Positions 14,321 through 62,498 of a DNA stretch of 64,000 nt are shown piece by piece. Below the pieces are notes generated by a model. That model made no database searches, was not told the DNA's origin, and worked only from the letters and a program-made list of their open reading frames with translations. Both the position numbers and the translations under genes were made by a program. Numbering within the stretch: the stretch's first letter is position 1; each line of letters begins with the position of its first letter. Source of the DNA: Deinococcales bacterium (GTDB taxonomy: Bacteria; Deinococcota; Deinococci; Deinococcales; JAAFIG01); NCBI GenBank assembly GCA_043778225.1, contig JAYWGM010000070.1, positions 1 to 64,000 on the forward strand. The letters run 5' to 3'.

Positions 14321-16336
14321 ATGTTTTTAAGAATTTTGGCTTTACTGATAACACTTGTTTTCTCGAGTGCTACTGCTCAGAACTTGGCTTTTACTCGGCT
14401 CGAGAATGCTTTTTTGGGTAATCCACACCCGCAGATTTTGCCAGTGCCACAAAAAATAAAACTCGAGACTGGATTTTTGGCGCTTAAAGACTTGGGTATC
14501 AAACTCGAGGGCAACAACGAACTTTTAACTTGGGCAGCCCGAGACATCAATACAGAACTGAGTATGCGTGGTTTTACCGCGCTGTCGGGCGGTACAAAAC
14601 AAATTCGCATTGGCACACTCGAGAATGCAACCCTCAAAGCCGAAGCTGTGGCTCGAGGTTTAGTCCCAACCCAATCCGAGGGGTACGGGCTTTGGGTGGA
14701 CAGCACGGGGGTTGGTTTAATTGGTTTTGATGCGCTTGGCGCATACCGTGGAGCGCAGAGTTTACGGCAATTGCTTCAAAAAGACGGTTTTGGGTTTGCC
14801 AGTATTCTGGATTATCCAAGCCTACAAAGCCGCACGGCGATGATTTACCTCGATGCAGCCAGCCGAGGTGTCAACGATATTTTGATTCCCTTGTTGGCTA
14901 AACTTAAATTCTCGAGTTTGCTGGTGATGTCTAATTATGTGCGCTGGGAGAGCAGTAAAAACATCTGGCATCCCAACGGTGCAAGCAAAGATGAGGCGCG
15001 ACGCGTGGCAGAACTGATTCGCACCCACGGTATGAAAGCCATTCCTTTAATCGAAACGCCCGGTCATGCCCAATGGTTTTTTTACAACAACCAAAACCGT
15101 GACCTGATGCAAGACCCAGACTCCAAAGACCCTTACGCTTATAACACTTTGGATGAGCGGGTTTATCAGATTATTTTGCCGATTTTGTCCGAAGCGGTCG
15201 AGGTTTTTAAGCCCGAATTTGTGCATATTGGACACGATGAACTGGCGGCTCGAGACCGCTTCCCTGCTCGACCCGACGGTATGGCGCTTGGGCTTGGTAA
15301 ACTTTTTGCTGACCACGCGGTGCGCTTGTACACCCACCTTAAAAGCCTTGGGGTAGGTTCAATGATTTGGCATGATGTCGCTGCCACCGAAAGCCACCGC
15401 GAGACCATTTTGCCACTCTTGCCAAAAGACATGATTATCACTTATTGGAATTACAGCCCAGCCGCCGATTATCCACTTCTAGACTACATTCAAAAACAGG
15501 GTTTTCGGGTCATTGGCTCGAGTTGGTTTGCGGCTCGCAACCCCGAAAGCATGGCGAGCGCTGTGGCTCGAGTTGGGGCGTTTGGCGCACTGCAAACCCG
15601 TTGGAGCGGTTACTTTGGCAATGCCACGCTGCTGGATGGTCAAGTCGAACAGGGGATTGCTTATGTCCATGCGGGCAATGCTTTTTGGAACACCAACGCC
15701 CCAGCCCCCAAAGATAGTGCGGCGCGTTACCGCGATGCTCGGTTTCCAGCTAAAATTGCACCAGTGAGCGGCAAACTGATTGACCTCTCGAGCCTTGGCA
15801 CTCGAGGGCTGACCGACCCCGACGGAACACAATGGATTCAACGTGGCAACGAGATAGACCTGTCTGCCCTACCAATCGGTAAAAATGTTCGGCTGGGCGC
15901 ATATGCCTTTGATATTTCAAAAAGCATCATGCTCTGGGGGGCAAGACGCGAATGCCAAGACCTCCCCAAAAAAGTCAGCCTCGAGTTAAACCAAAGCGCC
16001 TCGAGTATTGCTTTTTTACATACGACGGGTTGGCTATCGCCTTTAACCAGCCCACGCACCAAAATCGGAGCGTACACCGTGCAGTACACCGATGGCACAA
16101 GTACAGCCATTCCGCTCGAGTACGGACGCAACATCAGCGCTTGGACTGAGCCACTGATTAAAACCACGCTTTTTGACCCTGTATGGTCTGGACAAACCAA
16201 AGGCGGCTTGGAAGTTGGCTTGGTGGTCATGCCGTGGCAAAACCCCAAGCCGAACGTAAGCATCAAAAGCATCACCCTCGAGAGTGCAGGGCTACAAAGC
16301 AACCCAATTCTGATTGGTTTAACGCTGCTGGACTGA
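14321..16336 (+). CDS. Secreted beta-N-acetylhexosaminidase (GH20)
   Basis: Signal peptide; IETPGH and VHIGHDE catalytic motifs; EGYGL GH20b domain. Confidence 0.85.
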   Translation: MFLRILALLITLVFSSATAQNLAFTRLENAFLGNPHPQILPVPQKIKLETGFLALKDLGIKLEGNNELLTWAARDINTELSMRGFTALSGGTKQIRIGTLENATLKAEAVARGLVPTQSEGYGLWVDSTGVGLIGFDALGAYRGAQSLRQLLQKDGFGFASILDYPSLQSRTAMIYLDAASRGVNDILIPLLAKLKFSSLLVMSNYVRWESSKNIWHPNGASKDEARRVAELIRTHGMKAIPLIETPGHAQWFFYNNQNRDLMQDPDSKDPYAYNTLDERVYQIILPILSEAVEVFKPEFVHIGHDELAARDRFPARPDGMALGLGKLFADHAVRLYTHLKSLGVGSMIWHDVAATESHRETILPLLPKDMIITYWNYSPAADYPLLDYIQKQGFRVIGSSWFAARNPESMASAVARVGAFGALQTRWSGYFGNATLLDGQVEQGIAYVHAGNAFWNTNAPAPKDSAARYRDARFPAKIAPVSGKLIDLSSLGTRGLTDPDGTQWIQRGNEIDLSALPIGKNVRLGAYAFDISKSIMLWGARRECQDLPKKVSLELNQSASSIAFLHTTGWLSPLTSPRTKIGAYTVQYTDGTSTAIPLEYGRNISAWTEPLIKTTLFDPVWSGQTKGGLEVGLVVMPWQNPKPNVSIKSITLESAGLQSNPILIGLTLLD

Positions 16337-17782
16337 AAAACTCCTCGAGACAAACCCAGCCAAATCCAGCGCCATTTGTTCTAAACTTGGTTTATGAACG
16401 TACATCATGTGTCCAGCCTCGTAATACTTGGTCTCGAGGTTCTGACGCAAATGGTTTGGGACTGCCAAGTGGTCAAATACATAGTCCGAAGCCCAATACG
16501 GGGTGGCGAGGTCGTAATAACCGTTTAAGACCATCACCCGTAAGTTTGGGTTCATGTTCATGGCTTTTCGCAAGGTCTCGGAAACATTGACGTATTTATT
16601 TTCAAATTCCTTGTATGACCACGGTTGCCAAACTTTCCAACTCAAGATTTCATAGACCACATCGGTTTCAAACCCAAGCTCGGAGCGCACATATTGGTTA
16701 AAGGCTGCCGTGTATGCACCATAAATCGCGGCGTAACTCGGGTCAAATTCAAAGTGCTGTCCTGCTGAATCACGGTCAGAAGCGGTAAACCTCGAGTCTA
16801 AGCGCCCGATAGTTTTACTTTTATGACGCAATAATTCTTTGCAAAAACGCATAATCTCGAGCCGTAAGTGCGAATGCTCAACAAATTCTTTAGAAATTCC
16901 GGTCAAACGCGCCACTTCTTTGACGACCCGCGTTCGTTCGTTGCCCTCGAGCCGATGCCCCTTAAATAAGGCGCTTTGGTAGGCACTTTGGGCAAATTCT
17001 TCGGCTTGGCGCAAATGTGACTCGAGCGATGCGCCTTTAACCTGACCATGGTAATGCGCCGTGGCAGCAAAAGCGGGCAAGTAAAGGGTGTGCGGTAAAT
17101 CGTTACCCAGTTCAAAACGAATCGTCGAAAAATCCAGCACCGTCGAAACCAGCACCAAGCCATTGAGGTAGACCCCGTGGCGTTCTTGCAAGTAACCCGC
17201 TAAACCACTGGCTCGGGTTGTGCCGTAACTTTCGCCAGCCAAAAATTTAGGCGATAACCAGCGCTGTTCGCGGCTGATAAACAAGCGAATAAAATCGCCA
17301 ACCGACTCTATATCCTTGGTAAAACCATAAAAATCTTTGGCTTTGCCGCCCTGCACGACCCTCGAGAAACCAGTGCCAACTGGGTCTATAAAGACCAAAT
17401 CCGAATCTGCCAATAAAGTTTGTGGGTTATCCTCGAGACCAAATGGCGGCGGGGTCAGTGCGCCAACATCGCCCATGACCACTTTACGCGGACCAAAGAC
17501 ACCCATGTGCAGCCAGACACTCGAGCTTCCGGGTCCGCCATTAAAACAAAAAGTAATCGGACGCTTGGCGGTCTCTGTGCCATTTAAGGTGTACGCCACA
17601 AAGAAAATCTGGGCTTGGGCTTGTTCGCCTTCCGAGACACCCTCTTTTTCGATTTCCGAACGCAGCACCATCGTGCCGACTCGAGCCGTGTACTCGAGTT
17701 TCTGCCCATGCAGCATCAGGCTGTGCTGGGTGGTGATGATTTTATCCTCGAGTGGCGGCACAACTTGGGTTTCTTCAGGCAT
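16319..17782 (-). CDS. Serine carboxypeptidase (S10)
   Basis: FNGGPGSSS, IDPVGTGFS, GESYG, YEAGHMMY. Confidence 0.92.
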   Translation of the reverse strand: MPEETQVVPPLEDKIITTQHSLMLHGQKLEYTARVGTMVLRSEIEKEGVSEGEQAQAQIFFVAYTLNGTETAKRPITFCFNGGPGSSSVWLHMGVFGPRKVVMGDVGALTPPPFGLEDNPQTLLADSDLVFIDPVGTGFSRVVQGGKAKDFYGFTKDIESVGDFIRLFISREQRWLSPKFLAGESYGTTRASGLAGYLQERHGVYLNGLVLVSTVLDFSTIRFELGNDLPHTLYLPAFAATAHYHGQVKGASLESHLRQAEEFAQSAYQSALFKGHRLEGNERTRVVKEVARLTGISKEFVEHSHLRLEIMRFCKELLRHKSKTIGRLDSRFTASDRDSAGQHFEFDPSYAAIYGAYTAAFNQYVRSELGFETDVVYEILSWKVWQPWSYKEFENKYVNVSETLRKAMNMNPNLRVMVLNGYYDLATPYWASDYVFDHLAVPNHLRQNLETKYYEAGHMMYVHKPSLEQMALDLAGFVSRSFSVQQR

Positions 17783-17790
17783 AAACCATT

Positions 17791-18246
17791 CTACGGCTTT
17801 TGGCGGTCGCTCGAGTCCATAATAATCGTGACTGGACCATCGTTGAGTAAACTAACTTTCATATCAGTTTGAAAAATCCCTTCTTGTACTTCCAAACCTT
17901 CATTCCGCAGTGCCTCGCAAAATTCACGGTATAAACGCCGTCCGTCTTCGCTGCTGGCGGCTTCGAGAAAACTTGGGCGATTACCGCCGCGAGTTTGGCT
18001 GTACAAGGTAAACTGCGAAACCGCCAAGACCGCGCCGCCAACTTGCTCGAGCGATACATTCATTTTGCCAGCAGGGTCGTTGAAAATCCGCAACTTGGCA
18101 ATTTTACGCGCCAAATAAGTGGCATCTTCTCGAGTATCCGATTTTTTAACCCCAAGCAGCACCAAAAAGCCCTGTTTGATGCTCGAGACAATTTTGTTGT
18201 CTACGGTCACACTGGCACTCGAAACGCGCTGCACCACCGCTCTCAC
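17791..18246 (-). CDS. dtd: D-aminoacyl-tRNA deacylase
   Basis: MRAVVQRV, SQFTL, NDGPVT. Confidence 0.96.
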   Translation of the reverse strand: MRAVVQRVSSASVTVDNKIVSSIKQGFLVLLGVKKSDTREDATYLARKIAKLRIFNDPAGKMNVSLEQVGGAVLAVSQFTLYSQTRGGNRPSFLEAASSEDGRRLYREFCEALRNEGLEVQEGIFQTDMKVSLLNDGPVTIIMDSSDRQKP

Positions 18247-18524
18247 GCTTGGGCTTTCTCGCCGCTCTCGAGTGGTATTTCTGCCAAAAGCTGGGTCAGG
18301 CTTTGCACCGCACTGGTCAAGGTGCTGGCTTCTTCGGCGTTTAAGTTACCTCGGGTTTTTTGGCTCAACATCTCGAGTAAGCGCAAACTGCGTTCGGCGG
18401 TGGCTCGATTGCGGCTCAGACCATCGCGGTTCATTCGGGCGGTCAGGGCGTTAAATTGTCCAAGGCTGGTTTCGGCAGCCGCCGTTAAGCTATGAATCAG
18501 ACCCAAAAAATCAGTATTTGCCAT
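18243..18524 (-). CDS. DUF1844 family protein
   Basis: LLEMLSQKTRGNLNAEE motif; ATGA overlap with dtd. Confidence 0.8.
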   Translation of the reverse strand: MANTDFLGLIHSLTAAAETSLGQFNALTARMNRDGLSRNRATAERSLRLLEMLSQKTRGNLNAEEASTLTSAVQSLTQLLAEIPLESGEKAQA

Positions 18525-18602
18525 GGCTTATAAATTAACAGTTTTTTTGCTCGAGCAATGGGCTTCTCGAGCCACCTATTTCTCGGGTACAATAGTCACA
18601 TC

Positions 18603-20450
18603 ATGACTCAATTTGTTGCTCCATCGGTACAAGCCGTCTTACCCATGCCAGTCGGTCAAACCCTCTCGAGGATGTTTTTAGCCACTGCCCAGCGCCGCCA
18701 GAATGCCATCGCCCTGCGCCGTAAAGAATTTGGGGTCTGGAAAGGTATTTCGTGGCTCGAGTACGAGCAACAAGCCAGAGCCGTGGCTGGGGCGCTGCTG
18801 GCTTGGGGCTTAGAAGCCAACCAAAGTGTGGCGGTGCTGGGCGAGAACCGTCCAGAATGGGTGATTGCTGACCAAGGCATCATGTTGGCGGCTGGCGTAA
18901 CGGCAGGTATTTATGCCACCAATGCCGCCGAGGGGGTGCAGTATGTTTTAGAGCATTCTGATTCGCGCTTTGTGATTCTCGAGAACATCGAACAGCTTGA
19001 TAAAGTCCTAGAAGTGCGTGCCAGTCTGCCAAAACTCGAGCGGATTATCGTCATGGATGTTAAGGGCTTACAAAGTTTCAAAGACCCCATGGTTTTGTTC
19101 TGGCAAGATTTTTTACAAATCGGTCTGGCATGGCTGCAAAACCCAAGCCACGCCGCCACACTGGAGGCACGGATTGCCAATCGCTTGCCCGACGACCCAG
19201 CGCTGTTTATTTATACTTCTGGCACGACTGGCAGACCCAAAGGCGCAATTTTATCGCATAAAAATTTGGTCTTTGCTTCGGGTTGTATGTCCAATCAGAA
19301 TCCGATGTACGAAAGCGACGAAGTGCTGTCGTTTTTGCCGTTGTCGCACATCACCGAACGAATGCTCAGTGTGGCGTTTCCAAGCCGTTATGGCTTTGTG
19401 GTCAATTTTGTTGAAAGCCCCGAAATGGTGCTGCAAAATATCTATGAAGTTCGTCCAACAATCTTTTTTGCCGTGCCGCGCATCTGGGAAAAAATCATGA
19501 GCGGTATCGAAATTCGCATGACTCGAGCTGATGCCTTAAAGCGGGTTGCCTTTCGCTGGGCGACGGCTCGAGGACGTGAGATGGGACGTGCCAAACTCGA
19601 GTCGCGCAGCCCAAGTGTTGCCAGTCAGATTGCTTATTTGGGGGTACTGCGAAGCCTCAAACAAAAACTTGGCTTAGACCGAGCGCGTTTTGTGCTGTCG
19701 GGTTCTGCACCAATTGCGCCCAGTGTCCTCGAGTTTTTTCATGGGCTTGGAGTCCAAATCCGCGAAGGTTACGGGCAGACCGAAGGCGCGGCTGCCGCCA
19801 CAATCCATCAGGGTTTTCCGTTTAAGCTCGGCACAGTCGGGCAAGCGCTGCTGGGTATCGAGATTAAAATTGCCACAGATGGCGAAATTCTACTGCGTGG
19901 CGACCATGTTTTTTTGGGCTACCACAAAGACGAACGCGCCACCCAAGAAACGGTTCAAAACGGTTGGTTACTGACTGGCGATATTGGCGAACTGGACGAA
20001 GCTGGCAATTTAACGATTACAGGGCGTAAAAAGGATATTTTTATCACTGCCGCAGGTAAAAATATCGCACCAGCCTATATCGAAAATAAGCTCAAAGCCA
20101 GCAGTTTTATCAACGATTCGGTATTGATTGGCGACGCTAAAAAATTCTTAACCGCGATTGTTATTGTGGATGAAGACAGTGTGTCCGAGTGGGCGCAAGC
20201 GCGAAAAATTCCCTTCACGACCTACACCGACCTTGTACAAAACGAAGACGTGGTTAAACTCATCGAGGGCGAAATCGAGACGGTCAATAAAACGCTGGCT
20301 CGAGCCGAACAGGTCAAAAAATTTAGGATTCTGCCAAAAAAATTAGCCCAAGAAGACGGTGATGTCACCCCGACCTTAAAAGTCAAACGTGCCAGCATCC
20401 TAAAAACCTATGCGGGTTTGATTGATTCCATGTACCAAGGCAACGATTAA
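18603..20450 (+). CDS. AMP-dependent long-chain acyl-CoA synthetase
   Basis: YTSGTTGRPKG, EGYGQTE, TGDIG, GRKKDIFITAAGKNIAP. Confidence 0.9.
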   Translation: MTQFVAPSVQAVLPMPVGQTLSRMFLATAQRRQNAIALRRKEFGVWKGISWLEYEQQARAVAGALLAWGLEANQSVAVLGENRPEWVIADQGIMLAAGVTAGIYATNAAEGVQYVLEHSDSRFVILENIEQLDKVLEVRASLPKLERIIVMDVKGLQSFKDPMVLFWQDFLQIGLAWLQNPSHAATLEARIANRLPDDPALFIYTSGTTGRPKGAILSHKNLVFASGCMSNQNPMYESDEVLSFLPLSHITERMLSVAFPSRYGFVVNFVESPEMVLQNIYEVRPTIFFAVPRIWEKIMSGIEIRMTRADALKRVAFRWATARGREMGRAKLESRSPSVASQIAYLGVLRSLKQKLGLDRARFVLSGSAPIAPSVLEFFHGLGVQIREGYGQTEGAAAATIHQGFPFKLGTVGQALLGIEIKIATDGEILLRGDHVFLGYHKDERATQETVQNGWLLTGDIGELDEAGNLTITGRKKDIFITAAGKNIAPAYIENKLKASSFINDSVLIGDAKKFLTAIVIVDEDSVSEWAQARKIPFTTYTDLVQNEDVVKLIEGEIETVNKTLARAEQVKKFRILPKKLAQEDGDVTPTLKVKRASILKTYAGLIDSMYQGND

Positions 20451-20470
20451 GGTGTTAGATTAGAGACCGC

Positions 20471-21556
20471 ATGGCAATTACAATTCAGTTACATAAGCAA
20501 ATGTTTAGCCAAACTCAACACAAGCTGCTCGAGACTCCAGATTTTCGAGCCGAGACTTTTTTATACCCCAGCGGAGTGCATGGTCTGCGGCTCGAGAACG
20601 CTCTTGGGCATTTAATCATGCTGCCGTTTCAAGGGCAGCAAATCTGGGATGCGGTGCTGCATGGGCGCTGCTTAACCATGAAAAGTATGTTTGAAGCGCC
20701 AAAGCCAACCCTGAGCTATTTAGAAAATTATGGTGGTTTATTGCTGCACTGTGGAATCACCGCCATGGGTGTGCCAAGCGCAACAGACTCCCACCCGCTT
20801 CATGGCGAATTACCCAATGCACCCTATCAAAGTGCTTATTTGCGTTTATCCCAAGACCAGCACGGGGCATATTTGGCACTTGGCGGCACATACCAGCACA
20901 CGGTTGCCTTTGCCCACAATTACCAAGCCATGCCCGAAGTGCGTTTTTATGCCAACTCGAGCCATGTGGCGGTACATTTTGCAGTTCAAAACCTCAAAAA
21001 CAGCCCAATGGAACTGATGTATCTGGCGCACTTAAACCTGCGCCCCAAAGACGAAGCCGAGTTATTGTACAGCGCTCAGGTTTCGCCACAAACGGTGCGA
21101 ATTCGCAAGACCATACCGGCTCATGCCCAATTCTCGAGCCAAGCGTGGCAACAACTTGAGCAACTCGAGCAGCACCCAGAATGGCATCATCAGCTTAAAA
21201 CTGGCGTAACTTACGACCCCGAAATTGTCTTTTTTATAGATTACCAAGCCGACCAAAACGGCTGGGCGCACAGCTTGCAGCAGCACCCGGATGGCACTGC
21301 CGACCATGTGATGCACCGCCCGAGCCAGTTACCTGTAGGAGTGCGTTGGCTGACCCGCACGCCAGACCAAGATGGGCTAGGACTGGTGCTGCCAGCCACT
21401 GCCGAACCAACTGGTTACAGCAGCCAAAAAGCGGCTGGGCGAATCGTTGAAGTCGCGGCTAAGGCAAGTTGGTCTTGCGAATACCATTTTGCGGTTCTCG
21501 AGCCACAAGAAGTTGCCCCAATTGAAGCTAAAATACAAGCGATTCTCGAGCAGTAG
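20471..21556 (+). CDS. DUF4432 / aldose 1-epimerase-like protein
   Basis: [35 protein letters not shown] motifs. Confidence 0.75.
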
Positions 21557-21564
21557 GAGGTCTT

Positions 21565-22569
21565 ATGGCAAGAAGTGTGACATTATTTACTGGGCAATGG
21601 GCAGATTTACCACTGGCAGAACTTGCGCCACTGGCAAAAAGCATGGGTTATGATGGTCTCGAGTTAGCGTGCTGGGGTGATCATTTTGATGTCCAAGCGG
21701 CTTTGGCTAGTCCGAGTTATCTCGAGCAAAAACACGCTCTTTTGGAACAACATGGTCTGACCTGCCACGCAATTTCGGCGCATTTGGTCGGGCAAGCCGT
21801 CTGCGACCATATAGACGAGCGCCACAAGGCTATTTTGCCGCCTCATGTTTGGGGCGATGGCAACTCCGAAGGTGTGCGCCAAAGAGCAGCCCTCGAGATT
21901 GCCGATACGGCTCGAGCGGCGGCAAAATTTGGAGTCAAGACGGTCAATGGTTTTACTGGCTCGAGCATCTGGCACACCTTGTATGCTTTTCCGCCAACCA
22001 GCCAAGCCTATTGGGAGGCGGGTTTTACCGATTTTGCTAAGCGTTGGCTACCGATTCTCGAGGTCTTTGACCAGCACGAGATCAATTTCGCACTCGAGGT
22101 TCACCCGACCGAAATTGCTTTTGACACCGCCAGTGCCGAACGGGCTTTATTGGCATTAAACCACCACAAACGCTTTGGTTTTAATTACGACCCAAGTCAT
22201 TTGGGCTATCAAGGCGTGGATTATGTGCGTTTCATTCGCACCTTTGCCAAGCAAATTTTCCATGTTCATATGAAGGATGTTTGGTGGGGACATGGCACGG
22301 GCGAAGCTGGGGTTTTTGGTGGACACACCAGCTTTGGCGACTCGAGGCGCTTCTGGGATTTTCGCAGTGTTGGGCGCGGCGATATTCACTTTGAAGAAAT
22401 TATTGTGGCGCTCAACGACATTGGTTACACAGGTCCGCTTTCGGTCGAGTGGGAAGATAGCCGCATGGACAGAATCCATGGCGCAACCGAAAGTGCCGCC
22501 TACTGTAAAAAACTCGATTTTAAGCCAAGCACCAGAGCTTTTGACAGTGCTTTTGAAAAGGAGCAATAA
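21565..22569 (+). CDS. Sugar phosphate isomerase/epimerase (xylose isomerase-like TIM barrel)
   Basis: [36 protein letters not shown]. Confidence 0.88.
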
Positions 22570-22572
22570 ATC

Positions 22573-23718
22573 ATGCAGCGTAAACTCAGGTACGGAATGG
22601 TCGGTGGCGGGCGCGATGCCTTTATTGGAGCAGTTCACCGTAAAGTCATGGCACTGGATGGAATGTATGAACTGGTGGCTGGCGCACTCTCGAGCCACCC
22701 CGAAAAAGCGATTTTATCTGGGCAAGACTTGGGTTTAGCCAGAAATTATGGCACGTGGCAAGCCATGCTCGAGTCCGAAATGGCACTGCCCACCGAACAG
22801 CGGATTGATGTTGTCAGCATTGTTACCCCTAACCATGTGCATTACCCCGTGGCACAGGCTTTTGCATCAGCCGGCATCCATGTGATTTGCGATAAACCCC
22901 TTGTCCACACTTCCCAGCAAGCCCAAAGCCTGCTTGAGACCGTCAAAAAGTCTGGCGTGGTCTTTGCTGTGACCTACAATTACACGGGCTACCCAATGGT
23001 CAAGCAAGCTCGAGAAATGGTGCAATCTGGGCAGCTTGGACAAATCCGCAAAATTATTGTTGAGTACAACCAAGGCTGGCTTGCCACCAAACTCGAGGAA
23101 TCTGGGCAAAAACAAGCCGATTGGCGCACTGACCCAGCCAGAAGCGGCGCGGCTGGCTGCATTGGCGACATTGGCTCGCACGCCGAAAACCTGATGCACT
23201 GCGTGACTGGACTCGAGCTAGAAAGCATCTGTGCCGACTTAACAACTTTTGTTGAAGGCAGGCAACTCGACGACGATGGAAATTTGCTGATGCGTTTTGT
23301 GGGCGGCGCAAAAGGGGTAATGATTGCTTCGCAAATCCAGATTGGTGGCGAAAACGATGTCCGTTTGCGGGTTTTTGGTACCCAAGGCGGCATCGAGTGG
23401 CATCAGGAAAACCCAAATTATCTCGAGTACAACCCAGTTAATGCCCCACGCCAAATCCTGACTCGAGGCTCTGGTTATGTCGGTGCCGCCGCCCAAAAAG
23501 CCAGTCGGATTCCGGCGGGGCATCCAGAAGCTTTTTTAGAAGCCTTTGCCAATGTTTATATTGGTGCTGCCGAAGCCATCCATGCCAAACTCGAAGGGCG
23601 CAGCCTTGGCGCACTCGAAGGCGATTACCCGACCCTCGAGGACGGCGCACGAGGTGTGAAATTTATTGAACGCACCGTAGAAAGCGCTGGCTCGCGCCAG
23701 AAATGGACAGCTTTTTAA
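22573..23718 (+). CDS. Gfo/Idh/MocA oxidoreductase
   Basis: GMVGGG, TPNHVH, CDKP, GDIGSH. Confidence 0.9.
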
Positions 23719-24902
23719 GGTTTAATTTTCTCGAGTATATCAGCAGCAATTCGGGCTGCACCACCCGCTAAGCCCATGCGTTCAAGCCCAACCGCTCGAG
23801 CCGCTGTCTGGTCGGCTTGGCGAATTGCCCTGACCAAATCCAAAGGGCTTGGTTGCTCGAGTAAGGTCAATCCAGCCCCAAGTAACCGAGCTTGGGCTTG
23901 GGCAAAATTTTTGGTGTACTGTGGTCCTTTGGTGGCAAAGCCAATTACGGGTTTTCCAAGTCCCACAGCTTGTTCGTTGCCTGTACCGCTCGTGCCAAGT
24001 ACGACCTGTGCTTGGTGCAGCAAAGCTGCAAAACTATGGGTGTGCATTAAAACCTGTGCTCCATTGGTGTGCAAGGCTGCTCGAGAGTTATCCACAGAAT
24101 CTCGAGTTATCCACAGCCAGTTTGTGGATAACTCGAGGCGTGAATCAAATTGCGTCAGGGCTGCAAAAGTCTGGTATTCGGGCAGCAGTGCCGCCACCTC
24201 AAGCATTTTTGGCAGGCTCTCGAGGTGGTCGTCACGTGTTCCGGGCAGCAGCAGCAGCACTGGCTGACCATTCAAAATAGGGCTTAAATCCAATTCTGGC
24301 TCGAGGCAATCCATCATCAGGTTGCCCAAAAAACTTGCGTGGGCTACCCCAAGTTCTTGCAGCCATTGGGCGGTGCGGCTATCCCGTGCATAGACATGGC
24401 GCACCATATTTTTCATCAGCCATAATTCTGGAGCAGTAAAACTGTCTACCGTTACACGGTTGAGGCGCTCGAGTTTATTCTTGGCGCTCATTCCGTCTTG
24501 GTAGTAGCGACTGACCAAGGGCTGAACCTGAAAAACAATTGGCTTGGCTTCCTTAAAAGCAAAAAGTTTGGTCACACCAAGCGCATAAATGTCGCCAACC
24601 ACAATCACTACATCGGCTTTGGCACGACGCACCGCCCAGTGTTGTTGGTGGGTCTGTTGGCGCATTCCGTCGCGCCAATCCTCGAGCAACCGCGCCAAGC
24701 TGGTAAAGGTAAACCCGCCTGACGGCGGTGACCAACGCGGACCCAAAACGCGCACCCCAAGCTGCTCATAAGGATTACCAGCCCCAACAATTGGTACAGC
24801 CTCGAGTTCAAAATCTGGGCGTAGCCTCTGAAATTCTTTTGCCAACCGAGCGCCAAGGGTATCTTCGCCGTGACCGTTGGAAATAAAAAGAATTTTGGGC
24901 AT
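23715..24902 (-). CDS. Lipid-A-disaccharide synthase-related glycosyltransferase (TIGR03492-like)
   Basis: [41 protein letters not shown]. Confidence 0.8.
24080..24137. promoter_or_regulatory. Cluster of three perfect DnaA boxes interleaved with CTCGAG (intragenic)
   Basis: TTATCCACA 24088-24096 and 24107-24115, TGTGGATAA 24123-24131; CTCGAG at 24080, 24101 and 24132. Confidence 0.7.
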
Positions 24903-24962
24903 AGGCGATATCTAGTTTACCTTGTGTTGTCACCGCGTAGCGCAAAAAGTAGACTAACAAAC

Positions 24963-25481
24963 ATGAACCCAGAGCGCCCAACGCTAGAAGAACACTTGCC
25001 CTACTTCTCGAGGTACATTGACCTTGTGCCGGAAGGCGACATCAATACCCTGCTCGAGTCGCAATTGATGCCATTTGAAGCCAAGCTCAGAGCTTTGAGT
25101 GCTGACCAGTTGCAGCACCGTTACGCCCCAGAAAAATGGAATACGCTACAAATCATAAAGCACTTGTCGGATACCGAGCGGGTTTTTTCGTATCGAGCCG
25201 TCCACTTTGCTCGAGGCGACAGCAGCCCATTGCCGAGTTTTGACCAAGATACATGGCTCAAACAGACCACCAGCCAAGACCTCGATAGGTTGTTGCTCGA
25301 GTGGCAAAGTGTGCGGCAGTCGGCAGTCTATCTTTTCTCGAGCTTAGATGGTGCTGCGTGGTTACGCCGTGGGACTGCCAGTGGTCATCCGATGAGTTCG
25401 AGGGCGTGTGCTTATATTATTGTTGGGCATCTGATGTATCACCAAGAGTTGCTGCGCCAAAAATATGGCTTGGCGGTTTAA
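24963..25481 (+). CDS. DinB family protein
   Basis: YAPEKW, HLSDTERVF, GHLMYH; TAGACT -10 at 24950. Confidence 0.85.
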   Translation: MNPERPTLEEHLPYFSRYIDLVPEGDINTLLESQLMPFEAKLRALSADQLQHRYAPEKWNTLQIIKHLSDTERVFSYRAVHFARGDSSPLPSFDQDTWLKQTTSQDLDRLLLEWQSVRQSAVYLFSSLDGAAWLRRGTASGHPMSSRACAYIIVGHLMYHQELLRQKYGLAV

Positions 25482-25637
25482 GCTAAGTCAAAACGCTAAA
25501 GACAAGTTGATTTTCACTTGAGTGAACCAGCCAAGATAATCCTTATTCTCGAGCCTCAACCACTGGCGGCGGTAGGCTTTCAGGTTGTTGCTGTTTAGGC
25601 AAGGCGCGGCTCAGTCGAGAATTGTTCTCTAAGCCCC

Positions 25638-25656
25638 TTGACATGGAAGCGCTTCC
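25638..25656 (+). promoter_or_regulatory. Putative -35 box (TTGACA) with adjacent LacI-family operator GGAAGCGCTTCC
   Basis: Perfect 12-bp palindrome with a central AAGCGCTT core, directly after TTGACA upstream of the pullulanase gene. Confidence 0.65.
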
Positions 25657-25738
25657 TCGGGAAACTGGTACATCCCTTGTCAAATATCCAGCTTTCGAGC
25701 CAAAACTCGAGTGCTTTTGACTCGAGTCTTGGAGGTTT

Positions 25739-28700
25739 ATGAAACAATTTTTGGTGGTCATCGCCCTGATGCTTGGTTTGGCTTTTGCGCTCTCGAGCGC
25801 CCAGAGTAACCGCGTCGTCACGCTGCCCGGCAGCATTCAAAAAGCCCTTGGGGGTAAAGAATGGGATCCGGGCGGCGAAGTCACCCGCATGACCGAAGTC
25901 AGTGCCGATTTATACGAATTTGTGGCGGCTTTCCCCAAAGGCAAATACGAATTCAAAGTGGCGGTTGGTGGCACTTGGGACGAAAATTACGGTAAAAACG
26001 GCGAAAAAGGCGGCGCAAATTTAACACTTGATGTCCCAGCCGACAATACGATTGTTAAATTTGTGTTTAACTACACAACGAAAAAAATTATGGATAGCCT
26101 AAACAACCCCACCGAAGTCACTGCACCCGCGACCGTTCCTGCTCGAGCCGCCCCCGTTTCTGCCCCGATTAGCGAAGGCACAACTCGCTTTATTGTGCAT
26201 TACAAGCGCACCAGAGGCGATTATGAAGGCTGGAATCTGTGGGTTTGGGCAGATGGCAGCGACGGTCAGAGTTATAAATTCAATGGCTCGGATGATTTTG
26301 GGCTGGTTGCCACGCTTGATTTACCTGTGGCGGTGGCAAAAGTCAATTTTATTGTCCGTTTGGGCGATTGGCAAGCCAAAGACACCGAAAGCGATCGCTT
26401 TGCAACGGTACAAAATAGCAAAGCCGAAATTTGGTTATTGCAAGGCAACAAAGAGGTTTTTGAGTCTCGAGCCAAAGTAGATACCTTTGCAGCCAGTGCT
26501 GCCCCGCCACGTGGCGAACCTGCCTTTTTGGACAGCCCAAGTGTGATTAAAGCCTGGATTCCAAAGGCACTGACCCCAGAAAGTCTCAACGGTAAAATTG
26601 CCTTAACCATCAATGGTAAACCACTGGCGATTAAATCCATTGGGGCTGGTGGTGCGCCTGTGCTGGCTAATACCGACAGTGTAGACCCCACCAAGGTCGT
26701 GCTGGCTGGCACAATCCAAGGCGCTTTGGGTGGCACAGACTGGAATCCCAACGGCGACATCACCCGCATGACCGAAATTGCTAAGGGTGTCTTTGAATTT
26801 GTGGCGGCATTCCCCAAAGGTAATTACGAGTACAAAGTGGCTCGAGGTGGGGCTTGGACTGAAAATTATGGAGCAGATTTTGCGCCAGACGGTGGCAATA
26901 TCGGTTTAGCGGTGGCAACCGATGGCACAATTGTGCGCTTTGTGGTGGATTTTAATACCAAAACCATTCAAGACAGCCTAAACAACAAAAATATCATTGC
27001 ACCTGCCACTGTTGTAGCCCGAGCCATAATCGCTAAACCAAGCACAGGACCAGTCCAAGTGCTGGCAATCAACCTCGAGAAACCAATGAGCCCCAAAGAA
27101 ATCAGTGGCTTGATCGAAATGAAAATTGAAGGTGATTTACCGCGCACGGTCTATGCCCGAGAAATCCTTGACGGCAAAGAGTACCAGTACAATAAAGACG
27201 ACCTTGGCAATCGCTACAGCAAAAACCAAACGGTCTTTAAGGTTTGGTCGCCAGTCTCGAGCAGTGCTGAATTGTTTATTTTTGATAATCTAACCGACGG
27301 ACCAAGCGAAATCATAGACTTACAACGTGGCTCGGCTGGGGTCTGGTTTGCAGTCGCCAAAGGCGATTTGCACGGCAAGTATTACCAGTACCGCTTTAAG
27401 TCTTATGGCGAAACTCGAGTGGCTGCCGATGTCAATTCTTATGCTGCCAGTAGCGATTCGAGCCGCAGCATGGTGGTGGATTTAACGCGCACCAACCCAA
27501 AAAACTGGACATTGCCTAAACCAACCCAACGCCCACAAACCGAAAGCATTTTGTACGAGCTTCATGTCAGGGACTTGACGAGCGACTCCTCGAGTGGTGT
27601 ACCCGAAAGCCTGCGTGGCAAGTACCTTGGCTTTGCCCGTGGTGGCACAAAAACCTCGAGCGGCGCAAGCACTGGCTTGGATTACCTCAAAAGCCTTGGT
27701 GTGACCGATTTGCACCTCCTGCCGATTCAGAATTTTAATCCAAAAAACAGTGGTGTTTATAACTGGGGTTACGAAACCAATTTGTTTAATATGCCCGAGG
27801 AACAGTACAGCACCGACCCAAACGACCCAATCAAAACCATTCTCGAGACCAAAACCATGTTCCAAGCGATTCGAGAAGCTGGTATGCGGGTGATCATGGA
27901 TGTTGTTTATAACCATACTGTTCCGGCTCGGGGCGAAGAAAGCGCTTTTTGGCAAACTGTGCCGTATTATTATTTTCGGACCAACGACCAAGGGCAAGTC
28001 TTGAACGAATCTGGTGTCGGCAACGCGCTGCACGATGACCGCCCAATGGTCCGTAAGTACATCCGCGAGAGTGTTCTGTTTTGGACAAAAGAATACGGCG
28101 TAGATGGCTACCGTTTTGATTTAATCGGGATGTTCACCAAAGGTACAGTAACCGATTTCACGGCTGCTTTACGCAAAATCCGCCCAGACATTGTGTTGTA
28201 TGGCGAACCTTGGACGGGTGGCGGACCGACCCGTTTTGGCAAGGGTTCGCAGCGCGGCACAGAATTTGCAGTTTTTAACGACAACATCCGCAATGCGATG
28301 CGTGGCGATTTGGACGGTACAAAAGCTGGCTTTGTGATGGGTGGCTTAACCAGCTTAACAGCCATCAAAAAAGGCATTGTCGGCAGCATTAATTACGAAG
28401 GTAGCATCGCGGATTTTACCGACAGCCCACTCGAGACGATCAACTATATTTCGGCACACGACAACCTAACGCTCTGGGATAAAATGGACAAAGCCATGCC
28501 AAACACCCCCATCGCCTTAAAAGCTCGAGCTGTGCAACTTGGTGGCGCAATTGTGCTGACCAGTCAGGGTGTGCCATTTCTCGAGGGCGGTGTGGAAATG
28601 GGGCGCACCAAAGGCGGCAACAACAACAGTTATAACGCTGGCGATGGTGCAAATAAATTTGACTGGAACAGAGCCGCGCAGTTCCCCGAGGTGCAAAAGT

Positions 28701-61403: not shown

Positions 61404-62498
61404 CTAAGTCTGTGTCCAAGATTTGCGTTGTTGCTGCGTGTATTCTGCCGTTCGGCGCACTTCTTGGCTTGGGTCTTGGCTGAGTTGTCCAAGGATTTTA
61501 TCCGAAACTGCCCCGACATACGCCACTTGGTAACGAACATCTTCGTGTGGGTCGTTTGCCAGTCGCTCGAGAACCCACTCTGGCAATTTGCTGCTTCGGG
61601 CATAAGCCAAGGCACGCCTTATATCTGGATTGGTGTCTTGCAGTAGAATCTCAAAAATAGCCTTGGTTTGGTCTTCGCGGCGGGCAATAGACAAGCGTAT
61701 TTGGTCTATTGGGTCATTGGCAAATTTTGCCATCAAGGTTAAAGGGAGTTCATGATGCTCGGCTAAGGTTTGGCGTATTTTTTCGTCGGAATCAGCTACC
61801 AATTGACCATGAAATTCTTTAACCCAGATAAAAAGTTCGGCAATTTTCAGGCGAACTTCGGGGGCAGGGTCTTGAGTTAAAGCCAAAAGCAATGTAACTT
61901 CGCCGCGTCGTCGCAGGTTATCCACACTCGAGGCACGCACGGCTGCTGCTGGGTCAGTGGCTAGAATTCGCAGTTCTTTGGTTGGTACATTGGCATTGCA
62001 GGCGACCATATCCCGCACAGGGCTTTCTGGGTCGTAAGCCAGTTGCTCGAGTACCACCACTGGACAGGCATGACTCATGGCGACTGCCGAACGAACATAG
62101 GTTTCTAAATCTTGGCTGAGCAAGGTAAAAATGGCATCTGAACAAAGTGCATGGTTGGTCACGGCTTGGCGCACCTCAGCATCTGGATGCTTTGCCAGTT
62201 GCTCGAGCAGTTGCACGGGTGTGTTACGGCTTTGGGCAACAGCTAGACAAACCGAAAACTGTTTGTGTTTAGCCAATTTCTCGAGAATGGTTACACTGAC
62301 ATTTGGGTTCAGTGCCACGGCTTTGAGGATTGTCCATTTGCCATGCCCACTTAAATACTCGAGTGCCGCAACAGGCGCGTTGGGATGACTTGCTACAGCG
62401 TACTGCACCGTTGGGTCTGGAGTTTTGGCTAACTCGAGCAACCGCGCTGCAAGGGTTTTTCTGTTTTTGGCTTCTTTTTTAAGGGCAGCAATATCCAT
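61404..62498 (-). CDS. Leucine-rich-variant/HEAT repeat protein
   Basis: ~24-aa repeats LEQLAxDPxxxVRxAVAxNP. Confidence 0.8.
   Translation of the reverse strand: MDIAALKKEAKNRKTLAARLLELAKTPDPTVQYAVASHPNAPVAALEYLSGHGKWTILKAVALNPNVSVTILEKLAKHKQFSVCLAVAQSRNTPVQLLEQLAKHPDAEVRQAVTNHALCSDAIFTLLSQDLETYVRSAVAMSHACPVVVLEQLAYDPESPVRDMVACNANVPTKELRILATDPAAAVRASSVDNLRRRGEVTLLLALTQDPAPEVRLKIAELFIWVKEFHGQLVADSDEKIRQTLAEHHELPLTLMAKFANDPIDQIRLSIARREDQTKAIFEILLQDTNPDIRRALAYARSSKLPEWVLERLANDPHEDVRYQVAYVGAVSDKILGQLSQDPSQEVRRTAEYTQQQRKSWTQT

Follow-up and report, generated by a model that had tools for sequence, protein, structure and literature searches.

Non-origin clusters of DnaA boxes are described in Bacillus subtilis and Escherichia coli as intergenic; here and below, statements on published systems reflect the accessible parts of the cited papers. 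In B. subtilis, DnaA-box clusters (DBCs) are dense groups of consensus boxes located away from oriC but mostly in its vicinity; a genome has several of them, and their neighbours change between species. Stable binding was scored there on four adjacent boxes, and the eight sites bound in vivo are all intergenic (PMC2533591). Loss of the oriC-proximal clusters leads to early initiation, the effect depends on their position and copy number, and such clusters are predicted in bacteria that lack SeqA and Hda (PMC3245932). In E. coli, datA is a non-coding locus with boxes of conserved sequence and spacing and a proposed negative role, which needs an IHF site between its boxes for the hydrolysis of DnaA-ATP (PMC5835720, PMC4585315). 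DARS1 and DARS2, also non-coding, promote initiation; their cores consist of three boxes, of which I and II oppose each other, and DARS2 needs IHF and Fis (PMC8682772, PMC4585315). Sites inside open reading frames (codV, rplB and others) are known from in vitro work on B. subtilis, where the strong site in rplB is unbound in vivo, possibly due to transcription, and where the accessible part of the report makes no case for conservation (PMC4447404). Finally, in Nocardia the hexamer CTCGAG is clustered at the origin, and an orphan methyltransferase accompanies it (PMC4752239), a situation that can be set beside Dam and GATC at oriC.

The locus we describe is related to each of these and identical to none. 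It belongs to a Deinococcales bacterium (assembly GCA_043778225.1, hereafter G000; 4.03 Mb, 107 contigs, 89% complete), and the window, that is, the whole stretch of DNA that was analysed, comprises positions 1-64,000 of contig JAYWGM010000070.1 (C70). Inside a TIGR03492 gene of this window there are three perfect TTATCCACA DnaA boxes within 44 bp (Table 1). With the DBCs the locus shares dense consensus boxes outside oriC; in this family, too, a genome can hold several such clusters, which tend to be near oriC where the distance can be measured and whose neighbours differ from one species to the next, and SeqA and Hda were not found. However, a DBC lies between genes and is scored on four adjacent boxes, whereas the TIGR03492 cluster has three, is coding, shapes a protein and is found in Deinococcota. 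Because intergenic position and four adjacent boxes are both missing, we do not file it as a member of that class. The conserved sequence and spacing of its non-origin boxes and the negative role that we propose recall datA, but the 7- and 10-bp spacers would leave little room for an IHF site. Three boxes with one opposing pair (two on the plus strand, one on the minus strand) recall a DARS core, but this geometry is not kept in the other intragenic clusters of the family. The location inside an open reading frame is that of the B. subtilis in vitro sites, but here silent-site conservation and amino-acid changes indicate selection. As for CTCGAG, it stands beside DnaA boxes at this one site, but while the Nocardia hexamer is enriched at the origin, here it is spread genome-wide and depleted at oriC.

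Table 1. Coordinates of the features discussed. Positions without a contig label are those of the window; C labels are contigs, of G000 unless another genome is named.
Feature	Position	Strand	Remarks
Host gene	23715..24902	-	TIGR03492 'lipid-A-disaccharide synthase-related protein', 395 aa, above curated cut-off
CTCGAG	24080..24085	.	2 bp from box C; apparently incidental
DnaA box C	24088..24096	+	codons 269-272; perfect in 5/6 same-genus orthologues
CTCGAG	24101..24106	.	abuts box B; apparently incidental
DnaA box B	24107..24115	+	codons 263-266; opposes box A, 7-bp spacer; perfect in 4/6 same-genus orthologues
DnaA box A	24123..24131	-	in frame, Leu258-Ser259-Thr260; perfect in 5/6 same-genus orthologues
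CTCGAG	24132..24137	.	abuts box A; apparently incidental
dnaA	C89:46354-47664		dnaN next
oriC	C89:45997-46347		between dnaA and dnaN; 11 boxes within one mismatch
Four-box module	C30:4162-4321		two inverted pairs about 120 bp apart
prmC boxes	G013:C1:334856-334950		20 kb from oriC
prmC boxes	G009:C116:9440-9805

The original prediction, made from the letters of the window, had described three perfect boxes interleaved with CTCGAG inside a gene, the last two units forming a perfect 15-bp inverted repeat, and had considered three consensus 9-mers in 44 bp improbable by chance. All of this stands. Boxes and hexamers lie at the positions and on the strands described, the inverted repeat is seen at 24101-24115 and 24123-24137 around a 7-bp spacer, and only 4e-6 triples within 44 bp are expected per genome, given 49 non-oriC boxes in 4.03 Mb (perfect boxes number 62 genome-wide, the other 13 being located around dnaA). 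Box C is in tandem with box B, 19 bp from start to start. The window holds four TTATCCACA boxes where 0.28 are expected, a number that 0 of 100 shuffles reach, and between 23700 and 24500 the three of the cluster are the only ones within one mismatch of that sequence. Given the protein, the codon usage of the genome would spell the three boxes with a probability of 7e-6; box B, for one, uses the rare codon ATA, which accounts for 9% of Ile codons. The cluster is not an assembly error, because a contig of a public run (Logan, X2), which may come from the same source sample, spans the site: it covers 15000-27867 with zero differences. The fourth perfect box of the window stands alone at 61918-61926, is followed directly by CTCGAG and lies inside a 390-codon ORF.

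The host had been called a glycosyltransferase gene, which is acceptable as a statement on the fold and not as one on enzyme activity. An AlphaFold2 model of the protein (mean pLDDT 85) matches UDP-GlcNAc 2-epimerases (best E 4e-13, TM 0.63) and glycosyltransferases, a fold which we take to be GT-B, while a search of solved structures by sequence returned matches of E 0.07 or worse only. The protein is thus predicted to have a GT-B fold, and the name 'glycosyltransferase' refers to that fold. In the model, residues 258-272, which the boxes encode, form a loop and a short strand, and this region is the 11th least conserved of 375 windows when 18 boxless orthologues are compared. The cluster is located in the middle of the gene, about 770 bp from its start, and a scan for promoters and terminators around it remained at chance level, with no promoter-like match nearby.

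The main evidence for a function at the level of DNA comes from relatives. Of the 40 that were searched, 32 have the TIGR03492 gene, and 29 of these loci were aligned to that of G000. Within the same genus (g1) six genomes have a gene match, G003 having none. Four of the six (G001, G004, G005 and G007) retain the complete set of three perfect boxes at an identical 16/19-bp spacing, G002 keeps two and has lost the middle one, and G006 has none. Over five genomes only 20 of 123 fourfold-degenerate sites are invariant (pairwise identity to G000 0.46-0.57), and the box region is nevertheless the top 15-codon window of the gene for third-position invariance (11 of 15, where the mean is 0.19). Indeed, some residues vary while the letters of the box stay constant (Leu/Val263, Thr/Ser266, Ser/Ala269, Asn/Lys272). 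G002 has further acquired three additional perfect boxes in the same gene through non-synonymous changes, which makes five in total, and one of these falls in a motif that is constant across the 10 other alignment rows displayed. DNA-level conservation in orthologues, which had been put forward as a check, is therefore found: because the boxes are kept although silent sites are near saturation, we conclude from sequence comparison that they are under selection at the DNA level.

Beyond the genus, the sister genus g5 carries TTGTCCACA at equivalent positions, with three such boxes in G011, two each in G014, G016, G017 and G018 and none in G015. No boxes are present at the TIGR03492 positions in five genomes of genera g2-g4, and no perfect box in 12 loci from other families. 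We also followed the footprints that boxes A and C leave in the peptide, which are proxies and not DNA, across 120 protein homologues. Both footprints are present in 18 of the 20 closest, in 1 of the next 31 and in 0 of the 69 most distant, and that of box C occurs in 18 of those 31. Codon by codon, the box region can be aligned to that of orthologues without boxes, the G000 version being four codons shorter, and we conclude that substitutions, not a duplication, created the boxes. The suggestion in the original prediction that one box-plus-CTCGAG unit had been duplicated locally must be given up, as G000 shows no insertion when compared with the boxless orthologues. The gene tree is compatible with a single origin of the boxes of g1 and g5 as well as with separate ones.

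The hexamer is a different matter. CTCGAG occurs in 24,877 copies in this genome (6.2 per kb, about one per 160 bases, on every contig), of which 413 are in the window against 8 expected, and there are 284 places with three CTCGAG within 58 bp. The copy at box A is a Leu-Glu codon pair that is also present in the boxless G009, G012, G013 and G015, and it is lost in two of the five box-carrying relatives (G007 and G002) where the box is kept; this distribution indicates that the Leu-Glu codons are older than the box. The middle copy exists in G000 only and in 0 of the 5 box-carrying relatives of the same genus, and for that reason the 15-bp inverted repeat is also unique to G000. In G001 and G005 the third is 12 bases farther from box C, and G004, G007 and G002 have no copy at that place; a 4-codon deletion in G000 brought it close to the box. 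Mapping all boxes and looking for adjacent CTCGAG had also been proposed, and the outcome is mixed. Perfect boxes directly preceded by the hexamer number 4 of 62 (two at the cluster, one at oriC, one on C30; naive p 4e-4), but within 30 bp of boxes there are on average 0.37 copies, against 0.40 at random sites genome-wide. The 12 boxes with a 5' AG flank are all in clusters, and given this flank 4 of 12 have CTCGAG, which is not significant (p 0.07). Clustered boxes may simply favour a 5' AG flank, so that a word iterated throughout the genome ends up beside them. The CTCGAG copies interleaved with the boxes thus appear incidental.

In 16 genomes of the family, which as kin are not independent, the main oriC clusters together contain 8 copies of CTCGAG where 22 would be expected, and the hexamer flanks 3 of the 181 oriC boxes. 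Hence neither an enrichment of the motif at oriC, as in a Dam/SeqA-type system, nor a SeqA-type reader is found: SeqA (PF03925) was found in none of the five genomes searched (0/5), with a positive control matching in E. coli, and Hda did not exceed the cut-off in any of the five (0/5). Among 20 motif-positive ORFs in the methyltransferase search of G000, 12 were inspected and none was assigned to CTCGAG. Eco57I-domain matches are present in 11 of 12 genomes in ORFs of widely different length; G013, a single contig, has no such methyltransferase at E 1e-8, though it is rich in CTCGAG at the loci read. A search for the XhoI endonuclease family gave no match, and neither did its positive control. 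In the literature, a bioRxiv paper on a hot-spring epigenome reports, in its accessible part, CTCGAG methylation in other taxa with no tie to this Deinococcales family, and our searches returned nothing on CTCGAG as a 'highly iterated palindrome' or as overrepresented together with Meiothermus.

The real origin is on another contig. At oriC, tandem boxes adjoin a run of TAG trios (C89:46105-46145) and an AT-rich stretch is present, and within the wider region (C89:44803-47880) boxes are located upstream of dnaA, between dnaA and dnaN and downstream of dnaN. DnaA-trios and an AT-rich stretch beside tandem boxes constitute an unwinding module (PMC8287927). In the relatives that were read, TTATCCACA is the dominant origin box and TTGTCCACA a common variant, and the DnaA of D. 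radiodurans binds TTATCCACA (PMC7988490). The distance between cluster and oriC in G000 is at least about 48 kb. The ends of C70 are shared repeats that provide no unique link toward oriC, and Logan contigs proved too short to join it to other contigs. In G018 (genus g5), on the other hand, the TIGR03492 boxes are 9.6 kb from oriC; in G015 of the same genus the gene, at about 10 kb from oriC, has none of the three boxes; and in G013 the boxless TIGR03492 gene is 863 kb and the boxless fdhD 1.94 Mb away from oriC. As a way to place C70 relative to oriC, synteny is weak: pooled, it gave 5 of 10 bins (uncorrected p 0.033, from kin that are not independent), and against G013 alone it was not significant (p 0.30).

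Some features of the assembly may be mentioned here. A repeat family of about 100 bp breaks it at the ends of C70, C75, C107, C67, C80 and others, the two ends of C70 being inverted copies. With a parS consensus we found 18 matches per strand against 33 for the control, which is no excess. Two identical parS-like 16-mers, three mismatches from this consensus, are located at C89:47887 and C89:47948, upstream of dnaA and near parA/parB-like genes; within two mismatches this variant has no match on C70.

The TIGR03492 gene is not the only one of its kind. In G000, fdhD (C11:8585-8848) holds three perfect boxes, and G000 has a fourth beyond the three that are conserved. These three (two perfect, one with one mismatch) are found in all six g1 genomes with a match (6/6) and in 0 of 11 others, and silent positions are fixed here too. 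They are 9 kb from dnaA in G007, while in G006 they persist on a 160-kb contig without dnaA. Of 19 genomes, only two, G013 and G009 of genus g3, have tandem boxes in an expanded loop of prmC. The genes are unrelated, and their distribution indicates that TIGR03492, fdhD and prmC gained lineage-specific clusters independently. Modules like the one on C30 are found across the family with differing neighbours, at 6-9 kb from oriC in G013, G009 and G010, and the four non-origin multi-box clusters of G013 are 6.5, 20, 245 and 482 kb from oriC. An opposing pair with 16 bp recurs at another satellite cluster in g5. Closeness to oriC is thus neither sufficient nor strictly required, since G015 is boxless near oriC and G006 has its fdhD boxes on a contig without dnaA. 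We also observed that the fdhD matches in G001, G003, G005 and G010 contain one TGA and long open frames, which may reflect a fusion or an effect of the boundaries.

The cluster is likely a DnaA-binding site outside the origin, and this component of the original prediction, a candidate DnaA-regulatory site, holds in so far as the boxes match the oriC consensus of the family and resist silent-site drift. In our opinion, with a probability of roughly 0.62, it is a docking site within a gene that binds the initiator and damps initiation by analogy with the DBCs of B. subtilis. According to this reading, point substitutions would have created the boxes while the gene was near oriC, where extra boxes would be most useful because of early duplication, and the boxes would have been written into a loop of the host protein that is variable and tolerates them. 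DnaA would occupy the cluster in vivo despite transcription, and the cluster would either withhold DnaA from oriC or inactivate it, the effect being negative in both cases, through titration or inactivation.

Several other explanations have to be weighed against this. That the cluster has no DNA-level function, and is due to chance, to constraint on the protein or to a local duplication of one box with its CTCGAG, is largely refuted and in our view highly improbable. It is true that G006, G015 and a few further homologues have lost the boxes, and it follows that the cluster is dispensable; however, silent positions are kept against saturation, few parts of the protein are less conserved than the loop, boxless orthologues show no insertion, and the boxes gained in G002 came with amino-acid changes. 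A secondary or backup origin is barely conceivable. Perfect boxes including a tandem pair, and the multipartite genomes of Deinococcus (PMC7988490), might bring it to mind, but the cluster is not an origin, because it has no run of three TAG/TAA/TAT trios beside its tandem boxes and, with an A+T content of 0.48, no AT-rich stretch, both of which the dnaA-dnaN region has; besides, in g5 less than 10 kb separates the site from the real oriC. The original prediction preferred a gate in which methylation of CTCGAG controls the binding of DnaA in a Dam/SeqA-like manner, and we disagree with this component. The 4 of 62 boxes that are directly preceded by the hexamer would agree with it before conditioning on the flank, and so would the Nocardia precedent, but flanking copies are not conserved alongside the boxes, their frequency near boxes is that of random sites, oriC is depleted, SeqA was not found and G013 lacks an Eco57I-domain methyltransferase at the threshold given above. 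Such a gate has a very small probability, and a replication-gating role of the hyper-abundant CTCGAG is disfavoured in general, since the word avoids the origin.

Two further readings accept that DnaA binds and differ in what follows from it. The cluster could have a local role, a DnaA-bound roadblock or attenuator that couples transcription of the host gene or its neighbours to the level of DnaA and has nothing to do with initiation. DnaA does regulate genes beside some of the B. subtilis clusters (PMC2533591, PMC3245932), the boxes move with the gene through rearrangements, and those of fdhD remain on contigs without dnaA. Yet we consider this unlikely: the hosts are three unrelated genes, each in a different lineage, the neighbours differ between g1 and g5 and even between G000 and its genus, and the cluster is far inside the gene without a promoter-like match nearby. 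The other reading, a DARS-like reactivation core in which the opposing pair and the third box would free DnaA of ADP and stimulate initiation, we regard as improbable. Three boxes with an opposing pair, as in the cores of E. coli, at a fixed 16/19-bp spacing in two genera and with the 16-bp opposing pair found again at another g5 satellite, would suit it, but G002 does without the middle box and has added scattered ones, and the clusters in fdhD and prmC have different geometries. These differing geometries fit selection on the number of boxes better than selection on a single architecture.

A wider reading may also be considered, which we offer tentatively and at somewhat less than even odds. 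Selection near the origin would repeatedly write boxes into whichever gene sits there, as with TIGR03492, fdhD and prmC independently, by amino-acid changes and loop expansion, and intragenic clusters would represent a general level of initiation control that has been overlooked, as well as a fossil record of past proximity to the origin. It would be an important point that, if DnaA binds intragenic sites, searches restricted to intergenic regions miss part of the initiator-control circuit. The non-origin clusters of B. subtilis and E. coli are described as intergenic in the accessible literature, while the TIGR03492 cluster is intragenic with clear DNA-level selection. Our search of mainly open-access literature returned no paper on evolutionarily conserved intragenic DnaA-box clusters. 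As to the distribution of the host protein, one metagenome scan returned zero matches and another 8 distant homologues only, of 29-39% identity; the protein itself is present in a further assembly, on a contig of 241 kb.
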